From the sequence record OR844650: a stretch of DNA of 64,000 nt. One strand, given 5' to 3'. The first letter of the stretch is position 1, and each line of letters opens with the position of its first letter. A program made the translations under genes and the position numbers. This stretch comes from Escherichia phage ECO103 4-12-1. The notes beneath the pieces were generated by a model. That model was not told where the DNA came from. It saw only the letters and a program-made list of their open reading frames with translations, and ran no database searches. Shown here piece after piece: positions 35,009 to 36,842 of this stretch.

Positions 35009-35542
35009 TTATTTCCTCATGTATTTTATAACGTCTTCAAATAATTGTATTTTTAAGTCCTCGTCATTTCCAGGTAAAAACTCACGAAAACTATCAAAAT
35101 CTTCATTTTTTGCGAAGTTACGCATTTGTGTTGAGCTATATTGACTTACATTACGGTCAATACCTGCTTGAATTGCTTTTATACTACAAAAATTATACAA
35201 CTTACCATTGTACATGTCAAGAGTTTTTTGAAAAGAATCAATACGGTCAGAACCACATATGAAAAGAACATCTAAGTACTTTCCATCCAGTTCTCTCATT
35301 ATATCAAATAGATTGTCTTCTGTGTAGATGTTCTCTTGCACTGAAGGATAGAATCCCTCTGTATAATACATTTTTAGTTCAGGTGGGAGTGGGTTTTTTA
35401 TATTGTCAGTACTGGTGCTTAGATATATTTTTAAATCAGCATTGTACTGTTCTTTCAATTCCAATGCACTGTTGAATACAAACCCATGTCCATTATGTAT
35501 TGGGTTACATCTCATGAATGATAGTATACATGTTTCTTTCAT
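35009..35542 (-). CDS. HxGH nucleotidyltransferase (NMN/NaMN adenylyltransferase-like)
   Basis: FMRCNPIHNGHGF (HxGH motif) and SSTQMRNF (ISxTxIR-like) typical of the cytidylyltransferase superfamily. Confidence 0.6.
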   Translation of the reverse strand: MKETCILSFMRCNPIHNGHGFVFNSALELKEQYNADLKIYLSTSTDNIKNPLPPELKMYYTEGFYPSVQENIYTEDNLFDIMRELDGKYLDVLFICGSDRIDSFQKTLDMYNGKLYNFCSIKAIQAGIDRNVSQYSSTQMRNFAKNEDFDSFREFLPGNDEDLKIQLFEDVIKYMRK

Positions 35543-36324
35543 TTAAGGTACTCTCTTACAATTCTCACAACTTCATCCAGCTTATCAATCCCAACAGTTT
35601 CGGTGTATCCACTACCATATTCTTCTTTTGTAAAGAATGTATGATAACCCATACTTTTTATATACTTTTCAATTTCATTAGTATATCCAATATATTCATG
35701 AAGATATAACTCATACTTTTGTTTGGAAGTATTTTCAATATCATATTTTCTGCGAGTGATATCTTTAGAAACACCTAATTTGAAATGGTCTTCAGCTTTC
35801 AGGATATAAAAATAAAGCTCATCATCAGATTTAACATCATGCTTTAAATTATAGGTTGAGCATTCTGGACAACCATAGCCATGAACTTTGAAATTATTAT
35901 AACTGGTAGTGTTCCATATACCATGTGTTGGGCATTCCAAAGATAGTATTGAATCTTTACCAGAAAATTTATGTATGCCATGAAATGTATACATATTTCT
36001 TTCTGAATCATTTGCGATAATTGATTTTACATTTTCACTTATTGATTCTTTGGTATGTTTTTTGCAGCCAACACATACAGGACAACCGACTGTTTGATGT
36101 GTAAAATTACCAATTGTACATTTCCATGTCCCATGTTCAGAACATTCCATTTCACAATAAGTTCCGTGTCCATTCCATTCACCAACAAAGCCATTAAATT
36201 TAATATTTGATAGCTTAGGTGCTTTTAGTTTATCATTTATTCTACTAGCATAAACACGTGGGTGTAGAGCATTTGGTGGTTTTCCTATCATAGAAACTGT
36301 GTTGATATCAATGTATTTTGTCAT
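35539..36324 (-). CDS. zinc-finger protein with C-terminal T5orf172/GIY-YIG-like domain
   Basis: Two repeats C-x-x-HG-x-W ... GCP-x-C (CSEHGTW ... GCPVCVGC; CPTHGIW ... GCPECS) and C-terminal LYFYILKAEDHFKLGVSKDITRR. Confidence 0.4.
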   Translation of the reverse strand: MTKYIDINTVSMIGKPPNALHPRVYASRINDKLKAPKLSNIKFNGFVGEWNGHGTYCEMECSEHGTWKCTIGNFTHQTVGCPVCVGCKKHTKESISENVKSIIANDSERNMYTFHGIHKFSGKDSILSLECPTHGIWNTTSYNNFKVHGYGCPECSTYNLKHDVKSDDELYFYILKAEDHFKLGVSKDITRRKYDIENTSKQKYELYLHEYIGYTNEIEKYIKSMGYHTFFTKEEYGSGYTETVGIDKLDEVVRIVREYLK

Positions 36325-36842
36325 AAATTCTTCATCACCAATCCAAGAGATTTAAGATAATTGATTTTAGCAGTGGTTAAGTACTTATCCAGTACTATCA
36401 GACACGAAGGAAATGGTGCTGAATCTGTTTTCTTCTCTGGTTCTTCTGGGATACCAAATCGTAACCTTCCCTTAATAAAACAAATACAATCACAAACTTT
36501 CGCAGCATAATCCTGAAAGGCTATAGTATCCGTTCTTGATGGTACAAGAATTAATACAGTTGCCCCTTTATTATACGCATCTACTGCTTTAGATAACCAT
36601 GTTTTCAAATCACTATATGGAGGGTTCAACCAAACTATATTCTTTCCCCAATCCTGTGAAAGAGAATCATCATTTGGTGTAAAATAATTCTCACATAATG
36701 CAGTCTCATCAACACAAGCAGCATCAAGCGTAAATCCCCATAACTCATCTAACTCTTCAAAGAAATCTTTTGGAGTTGTCCAGTTATCTTTACCAGTACT
36801 AAAATGTACTGAATGTTTTTTCGAAGCATCCTTCTTCGACAT
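36321..36842 (-). CDS. dam: DNA N6-adenine methyltransferase (phage Dam family)
   Basis: Catalytic motif WLNPPYS; 173 aa. Confidence 0.8.
   Translation of the reverse strand: MSKKDASKKHSVHFSTGKDNWTTPKDFFEELDELWGFTLDAACVDETALCENYFTPNDDSLSQDWGKNIVWLNPPYSDLKTWLSKAVDAYNKGATVLILVPSRTDTIAFQDYAAKVCDCICFIKGRLRFGIPEEPEKKTDSAPFPSCLIVLDKYLTTAKINYLKSLGLVMKNL

Follow-up and report, generated by a model that had tools for sequence, protein, structure and literature searches.

A putative free-standing homing endonuclease gene of the CapR/T5orf172 class between the Dam and cytidyltransferase-like genes of an Asteriusvirus-like Escherichia coli jumbo phage

Putative homing endonucleases with a T5orf172 domain mostly carry repeated zinc-finger modules of the CapR, DUF723 and DUF4379 families (Barth, Dunham and Seed 2023, PMC10448857). 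The sequence-specific DNA binding of CapR depends on four cysteines (PMC8096241), and the T5orf172 domain of Odn is described in PMC10448857 as having a glutamate-dependent nuclease activity. Intronless homing, co-conversion and promoter-less endonuclease cassettes have been reviewed for phage T4 (PMC2988022). Here we describe a gene for a 261-amino-acid (aa) protein in a stretch of 64,000 nucleotides (nt) from Escherichia phage ECO103 4-12-1 (record OR844650), an Asteriusvirus-like E. coli jumbo phage. The whole stretch is called the window below. The domain architecture of the protein, the presence/absence polymorphism and precise insertion of its gene, the divergent patch that flanks it, its recurrence at the same site and its unusual composition lead us to conclude that it is most likely a free-standing homing endonuclease gene of this phage. 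These features place it as a divergent member of the known CapR/T5orf172 homing endonuclease class, and indicate no new kind of system.

Three minus-strand open reading frames (ORFs) are chained at the locus through 4-nt ATGA overlaps, in the order Dam-family methyltransferase, 261-aa ORF and cytidyltransferase-like gene (hereafter the transferase gene). The stop codon of Dam and the start codon of the 261-aa ORF share the ATGA at 36321-36324; the stop codon of the 261-aa ORF and the start codon of the transferase gene share that at 35539-35542. The original prediction, made from the letters of the window alone, had placed a 261-aa ORF and a Dam-family methyltransferase with an NPPYS motif at this locus, and both are found where it had put them. 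It had also called the two genes translationally coupled. The overlap is there, and it may couple translation of the 261-aa ORF to that of Dam.

Over the 3.5 kb that surround the locus, the window shares 98.9% identity with slurp01 and 96-97% with JP4, 121Q, PBECO4 and other phages. About 30 Asteriusvirus records have alignments that span the junction, and in these the match is split in two, with ~780 nt of the window skipped. In the five that were inspected (slurp01, JP4, WPEC5, A4 and JNE01), an ATGA overlap joins Dam directly to the transferase gene. The direct overlap and the two-piece alignments indicate that the 261-aa gene is a 782-nt insertion into the 4-nt Dam/transferase overlap, with the ATGA overlap recreated on both sides. 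The 786-nt gene alone had no blastn match ('distant' mode) among 50,697 phage records. The original prediction had proposed to compare this locus in related phages: no sequenced Asteriusvirus relative that was aligned has the gene, the empty site is precise in the five inspected, and presence among close relatives is sporadic.

A metagenome scan revealed two ENA contigs, OEQX01000020.1 and OERM01000014.1 (the L008/L009 pair), that encode an identical protein. They come from different assemblies, are mutually identical over 6.8 kb and share 98.8% identity with the window. A single mismatch to the window falls in 35259-36728, a region centred on the gene, and the differences are denser outside it, for example 36 mismatches in 36729-37304. 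This identical copy with distinct outer flanks indicates that the endonuclease gene and its immediate flanks are common to two distinguishable asteriusvirus backgrounds. The L008/L009 contigs also document that this endonuclease allele circulates in nature, and they may hint at the origin of the phage studied here.

The gene family appears to have few close members but many distant ones. In a search of 5.8 billion clustered proteins, P0001 and P0002 came closest, with 58% and 54% identity, respectively. An exhaustive HMMER search of 1.84 billion representatives gave 4 matches at E <= 1e-30 and 1,768 at E <= 0.001. The genes for P0001 and P0002 lie in divergent metagenomic contigs of jumbo phages, each flanked by Dam on one side and a transferase gene on the other, with the ORFs overlapping. 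In these two contigs, identity to the window is 57-64% for Dam and 47-57% for the transferase. A 45%-identical copy from the metagenome scan (L010, an orthologue of P0130) occupies the same slot between Dam and transferase. The order Dam, endonuclease gene and transferase with overlapping ORFs was found in L002, L003 and L010, so that the same insertion site is occupied in divergent genomes. A scan of IMG/VR with the orthologue alignment returned no relative. The same slot in four lineages, with a divergence similar to that of the flanking genes, would also fit a resident gene, in an ancestral Dam-X-transferase order, that was lost from most asteriusviruses and need not be mobile. We consider this very improbable, because a deletion would have had to recreate the 4-nt ATGA overlap to the nucleotide in each relative. 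Moreover, the flanks have 7 mismatches in ~3.3 kb against slurp01 except in one 73-nt patch, as after a recent recombinational gain or loss and unlike an ancient divergence, and the composition of the gene differs from that of the resident genes.

We then examined the protein. It contains both of the C-x-x-HG-x-W ... GCP-x-C repeats that had been noticed in the original prediction: repeat 1 is C61-S-E-H64-G-T-W67 ... G80-C81-P-V-C84, and repeat 2 is C131-P-T-H134-G-I-W137 ... G151-C152-P-E-C155. In Pfam, the CapR homology domain (PF21817) matches two stretches with E 1.2e-16 (61.1 bits; cut-off 24.2), the best one at aa 104-156, and DUF723 (PF05265) matches aa 118-156 with 25.6 bits (cut-off 20.9). 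Both families are thus above their gathering scores, and the four ligands of a treble-clef zinc finger are present in both repeats. In two alignments that include distant homologues, all zinc ligands other than C152 are invariant; C152 is invariant in one alignment and at least 90% conserved in the other. The repeats are predicted to bind DNA. PHROG 681 ('endonuclease') matches the protein over aa 33-260 with E 6e-35, which indicates that the domain pattern did not arise by chance. The NCBIfam and PADLOC models gave no match for the protein, and tblastn against the 64-kb window found no paralogue.

The C-terminal part was suggested in the original prediction to be GIY-YIG-related. It is best described as a divergent T5orf172-type GIY-YIG domain with intact motif residues, as judged from profile alignment and a predicted fold. 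The distant homologues P0003 and P0007 clear the Pfam thresholds for T5orf172 and MUG113. When the C-termini of the window protein, P0001 and P0002 were aligned by hhalign with T5orf172/MUG113-positive homologues, the probability was 95.3% and E was 2.1e-8. The motifs YFYIL/YxYIL and KLGVS/KxGIT are in register, and the Arg, the Glu and the GYTE have counterparts. In an 11-sequence C-terminal alignment that includes distant homologues, Y173, K182, G184, R191, E219, G239 and E242 are invariant; Y171, F172 and R192 are invariant among the four orthologues. The tyrosine of motif 1, the K/Y-x-G of motif 2, the arginine and the metal-binding glutamate are accordingly all present. In an AlphaFold2 model (mean predicted local distance difference test score, pLDDT, 77.5; predicted template modelling score, pTM, 0.38), the C-terminal domain has the order beta-beta-alpha-beta-alpha, which is the core of the GIY-YIG alpha/beta fold. 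A Foldseek search of predicted viral structures gave 168 matches at E <= 0.001, and those with names are labelled as GIY-YIG domain-containing, CapR homology domain-containing, T5 Orf172 or homing endonuclease proteins. The protein may thus be a nuclease. Lack of any nuclease-fold similarity together with an invariant locus had been named beforehand as evidence against the idea; we found a nuclease-type fold in the model and a locus that varies.

A Vsr-like C-terminus was also considered for the window protein and rejected, as the alignment and the fold indicate T5orf172. Hef-type homing endonucleases are reported to be Vsr-like (PMC3239194). The 'Hef-like' label among the Foldseek matches can be ascribed to shared zinc-finger modules and not to the nuclease domain. 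In P0004, P0009, P0031, P0100 and P0126, CapR/DUF723/DUF4379 repeats are fused to a different C-terminal domain. Some sources label them 'very-short-patch-repair endonuclease', and there are weak Pfam hints of DUF2726 and PvuRts1I. These fusions suggest that nuclease domains are shuffled on a common DNA-binding scaffold. The zinc-finger superfamily comprises at least 7,930 proteins at E <= 1e-5. A profile search that started from mixed homologues returned mainly long proteins with many zinc-finger repeats and added little for the nuclease domain. The same architecture is found at other loci of related jumbo phages, namely Escherichia phage UB and Klebsiella phages RaK2 and K64-1. The asteriusvirus UB has a 257-aa 'Homing endonuclease', and RaK2 has three or four matching places.

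The window gene resembles the T5orf172 class of ICP1 and other phages (PMC10448857) in its repeated N-terminal treble-clef zinc fingers and C-terminal T5orf172 domain, in its variable presence among close relatives and in its position beside conserved genes. It differs in that its T5orf172 domain stays below the Pfam threshold and its closest homologue, in searches covering 15 billion proteins, is 58% identical, and in that it lies in an Asteriusvirus-type jumbo coliphage, inside a 4-nt overlap. It is also like the free-standing GIY-YIG genes SegA-SegG of T4 (PMC2988022), which are promoter-less cassettes between conserved genes with a target in a neighbour gene (as we propose here) and show co-conversion of flanking markers. 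The GIY-YIG superfamily catalytic fold is a further likeness, predicted in the window protein. The Mob endonucleases of T4 share the same genomic behaviour (PMC2988022). Seg proteins and I-TevI, however, have NUMOD, helix-turn-helix or single zinc-finger elements, whereas the window protein has CapR-type zinc fingers. T4 Seg proteins have a canonical GIY...YIG, whereas the window protein, a putative nuclease, has the T5orf172 variant Y-x-Y ... K-x-G.

We then compared the flanks of the insertion with slurp01. There are 33 mismatches within 73 nt (35455-35527) and 7 in the rest of the flanks (~3.3 kb), namely 6 in 33100-35454 and 1 in 36321-37295. Divergence thus directly adjoins the element. 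The Dam gene differs from that of slurp01 by one nucleotide, and its protein is identical to those of slurp01 and JP4. In the transferase gene, nt 91-534 differ from slurp01 at one position. The 73-nt patch alters 12 of 25 codons (12 amino acids), including the region of the HxGH motif. Its part at about nt 69-90 of the transferase gene has no counterpart in any phage record and is unique to the gene-carrying genomes. Downstream of the GHG motif, five of five genomes without the gene encode GHG-L-[VI]-F-[ED]-K-A, while the four lineages with the gene have F, Y or K at the Leu position and no Lys. The patch and the downstream protein pattern have the appearance of a co-conversion tract or an immune target allele. 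We therefore regard the patch as a candidate co-conversion tract, and the allele of genomes without the gene as a candidate target site. The features of the locus are listed in Table 1.

Table 1. Features of the Dam/transferase locus in the window
Feature	Coordinates	Strand	Remarks
Dam-family (PF05869) N6-adenine DNA methyltransferase, 173 aa	36321..36842	-	Resident gene; Pfam, PHROG and PADLOC matches
Free-standing homing endonuclease gene (putative), 261 aa	35539..36324	-	Two CapR-type zinc-finger repeats and a T5orf172-like nuclease domain
Zinc-finger DNA-binding repeat 1 (predicted), ~aa 40-87	36064..36207	-	Ligands C61, H64, C81, C84
Zinc-finger DNA-binding repeat 2 (predicted), aa 104-156	35857..36015	-	Ligands C131, H134, C152, C155
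T5orf172-like (GIY-YIG superfamily) nuclease domain, ~aa 168-261	35542..35823	-	Y171-F-Y173, K182-L-G184, R191/R192, E219, G239-Y-T-E242
782-nt inserted segment relative to genomes without the gene	35543..36324	-	35539-36320 is equivalent (4-nt ATGA repeat ambiguity)
Divergent patch, codons 6-30 of the cytidyltransferase-like gene, including the HxGH motif	35455..35527	-	Candidate co-conversion tract
Cytidyltransferase-like nucleotidyltransferase gene, 177 aa	35009..35542	-	Resident; PHROG 3041; probable target gene of the endonuclease

More dense patches of substitutions against slurp01 are found upstream of Dam, at 37296-37383 (inside a 206-aa ORF) and 37780-39235 (across an ORF-poor stretch and a 295-aa ORF). 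They have no connection with the insertion of the endonuclease gene and suggest that asteriusviruses recombine often. About 600 nt between the 206-aa and 295-aa ORFs, at about 37480-38083, contain no convincing ORF. The counterpart of this stretch has no annotation in slurp01, and in JP4 and WPEC5 tiny ORFs fill it.

The composition of the locus was investigated next. The window has 197 AGTACT sites against 21.4 expected (9.2x), so the AGTACT bias mentioned in the original prediction is real; the next most enriched palindromic hexamer reaches 2.3x only. The longer sequence CAGTACTG occurs 46 times against 0.6 expected. The AGTACT sites are evenly spread, 176 of the 197 lie in minus-strand ORFs, and all three codon phases are used. 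Among the loci examined (L001-L007 and L010), the enrichment is found both in asteriusvirus relatives and in the divergent metagenomic relatives L002, L003 and L010. Literature searches pairing AGTACT with jumbo-phage or Asteriusvirus names found no paper linking them in the library searched. The four orthologous endonuclease genes (window 35542-36320; L002 5009-5775; L003 5009-5766; L010 3005-3755) together have 2 AGTACT sites against 12.0 expected from their own genomes (Poisson P = 5e-4), and in the three lineages compared the endonuclease gene has the lowest G+C of the three locus genes. These figures indicate that the endonuclease gene lacks the signature of its host genome, as expected for a moving element. 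The AGTACT depletion may reflect either a recent arrival of each copy or an exemption from whatever maintains the motif.

The domain family has precedents, CapR and Odn, for a different fate, that of a domesticated or re-purposed nuclease or DNA-binding protein. The gene would then descend from homing endonucleases but now serve the phage, as a sequence-specific repressor or as a nuclease aimed at competing phages or satellites, and would no longer propagate itself. CapR of the Vibrio cholerae satellite PLE (PMC8096241) has a homologous zinc-finger domain (PF21817), but it consists of the DNA-binding part only and is a transcriptional repressor, while the window protein has two repeats and a nuclease domain with intact motif residues. 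Odn, the origin-directed nuclease of phage ICP1, shares the T5orf172 nuclease domain and differs in being a domesticated anti-parasite nuclease (PMC10448857). A CapR-like repressor or an Odn-like nuclease at this locus would be in keeping with the intact ORF, with motif residues kept across four orthologues that are 45-58% identical, and with the same slot in four lineages. However, one would not expect a beneficial gene to be absent from every one of the ~30 close relatives sequenced, the patch hugging the insertion and the AGTACT depletion fit a selfish immigrant, and PADLOC gave no match. We therefore consider domestication quite improbable. An effect on competitors, in the form of marker exclusion, would in any case be a by-product of homing, so that this explanation overlaps with that of a homing endonuclease gene.

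We then investigated the Dam gene. Its product matches PF05869 over nearly its full length (E 6e-32; 111.1 bits, cut-off 28.1) and PHROG 111 with E 1.9e-56, and it has an NPPYS motif at aa 73-77 (nt 36612-36626), as in N6-adenine methyltransferases of the PF05869 family. TIGR01712 scores 92.8 bits, just below its equivalog cut-off of 97.05. A search of PDB sequences with Dam found no relative with a solved structure. The best PADLOC match of Dam is an orphan methyltransferase (E 9e-33). The 173-aa protein thus resembles the phage orphan Dam-family methyltransferases (PF05869, TIGR01712) in its near full-length match and its NPPY motif, and it differs in falling below the TIGR01712 equivalog cut-off and in the scarcity of GATC in the window. 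Every relative examined has Dam, whether or not it carries the nuclease gene. The transferase on the other side of the insertion matches PHROG 3041 with E 3.9e-54 and has an HxGH motif.

The original prediction had offered two readings of the locus, a self-modification and nuclease pair or a homing-endonuclease-like insertion. In the first, Dam would protect the genome of the phage itself from a neighbouring nuclease that cleaves unmethylated DNA, as in a restriction-modification system. GIY-YIG restriction enzymes exist, the two genes are adjacent and overlapping, and the nuclease gene adjoins Dam in all four lineages. However, Dam occurs without the nuclease in every relative examined, so the two do not co-occur as a unit in the manner of a Type II restriction-modification pair. 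The best defence-model match of Dam is an orphan methyltransferase, whereas the nuclease has no PADLOC match and, as is typical of homing enzymes, carries DNA-binding modules in tandem that suit a long site. It is on the transferase side that the scar is found, and Dam differs from slurp01 by a single nucleotide. The adjacency of Dam and transferase is itself conserved, and this, combined with site-specific homing, would account for the position of the nuclease gene beside Dam. A restriction-modification-like pair is therefore exceedingly improbable, and the evidence indicates that Dam is a resident orphan methyltransferase outside the mobile element. The second reading has held up: the gene is absent from relatives, the insertion is precise, a substitution patch adjoins it, and the same site is occupied in divergent lineages.

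GATC is the classical target of the Dam family. The window has 85 GATC sites against ~190 expected (0.45x) and 501 GTAC sites against ~190 expected. The window lacks GCGC and twelve G+C-rich palindromic hexamers, with expected counts of only 1-5. Between Dam and the AGTACT enrichment, we see nothing beyond co-occurrence in the lineage. The site beside Dam might mean more than where homing happens to occur: the endonuclease might discriminate between carrier and empty genomes partly through Dam methylation or the AGTACT landscape. Alternatively, the gene and the 73-nt patch might together act as a marker-exclusion weapon among co-infecting jumbo phages. We regard these ideas as unlikely.

The homing endonuclease that we favour would act as follows. 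During co-infection with a related phage without the gene, the two CapR-type repeats would bind a specific sequence of the other genome close to where Dam meets the transferase gene; its likeliest place is in the first ~90 nt of the latter. The T5orf172 domain at the C-terminus, of the GIY-YIG superfamily, would then cut the DNA there, and recombinational repair with the carrier genome as template would copy the gene and the adjacent flank into the cut genome. The carrier genome would be immune because the 5' end of its own transferase gene is a diverged allele. A sigma-70-type promoter scan found no convincing promoter specific to the 261-aa gene. The best site near the operon is 36902-36875, upstream of Dam, and the scan was weak overall (31 sites against 20.3 +/- 4.8 expected). 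An Rfam scan of 33000-40000 matched no RNA family. Given its position in a 4-nt overlap recreated on both sides and the lack of an evident promoter of its own, the element would probably be transcribed and translated with the Dam-transferase operon, leaving its neighbours undisturbed.

Several observations weigh against homing by this gene. According to PMC10448857, homing by the T5orf172-class genes of phage ICP1 analysed there had not been experimentally verified. When the C-terminus of the window protein is scored alone, T5orf172 (PF10544) reaches E 0.014 (16.3 bits, below the cut-off of 20) and MUG113 (PF13455) E 0.083 (13.9 bits; cut-off 22.3), so that the protein stays below the gathering score of both curated families. 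Its orthologue P0001 scores 19.5 and 19.9 bits on T5orf172 and MUG113, respectively. Foldseek of the full model against the PDB gave nothing below E 0.2, probably because the relative placement of the domains in the model is not confident (see the pTM above). A profile of the C-terminal domain also found nothing significant among PDB sequences; among the weak matches are two GIY-YIG-like proteins of the UPF0213 family, 1ywl (E 0.2) and 1zg2 (E 0.86). The orthologues are about as diverged as the flanking genes, which is compatible with a long vertical residence. The number of codons changed by the 73-nt patch makes it look like a piece of a diverged homologue and not like a minimal synonymous immunity patch. 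The patch is also a mosaic, as nt 1-58 of the transferase gene resemble the allele of JP4, WPEC5 and PBECO4, all of which are without the endonuclease gene. Finally, all genomes that lack the gene come from a single clade, so that few independent events underlie the link between the allele and the presence of the gene.

The class of endonucleases with CapR zinc fingers and a T5orf172 domain is widespread in phages, and with the present assignment a hypothetical protein becomes interpretable as a mobile element. A homing gene would also explain why two jumbo-phage genomes that are otherwise nearly identical differ by a local mosaic. The window and slurp01 form a near-isogenic pair with and without the gene, in which the empty site, the filled site and the 73-nt candidate target or immunity patch are all defined to the nucleotide. 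This makes the pair tractable for a proof of homing and for mapping the target of a T5orf172-class enzyme. In Asteriusvirus-type phages, a group that has received little study, homing endonuclease traffic may shape the diversity of alleles at that end of a conserved nucleotidyltransferase gene which encodes the active site.

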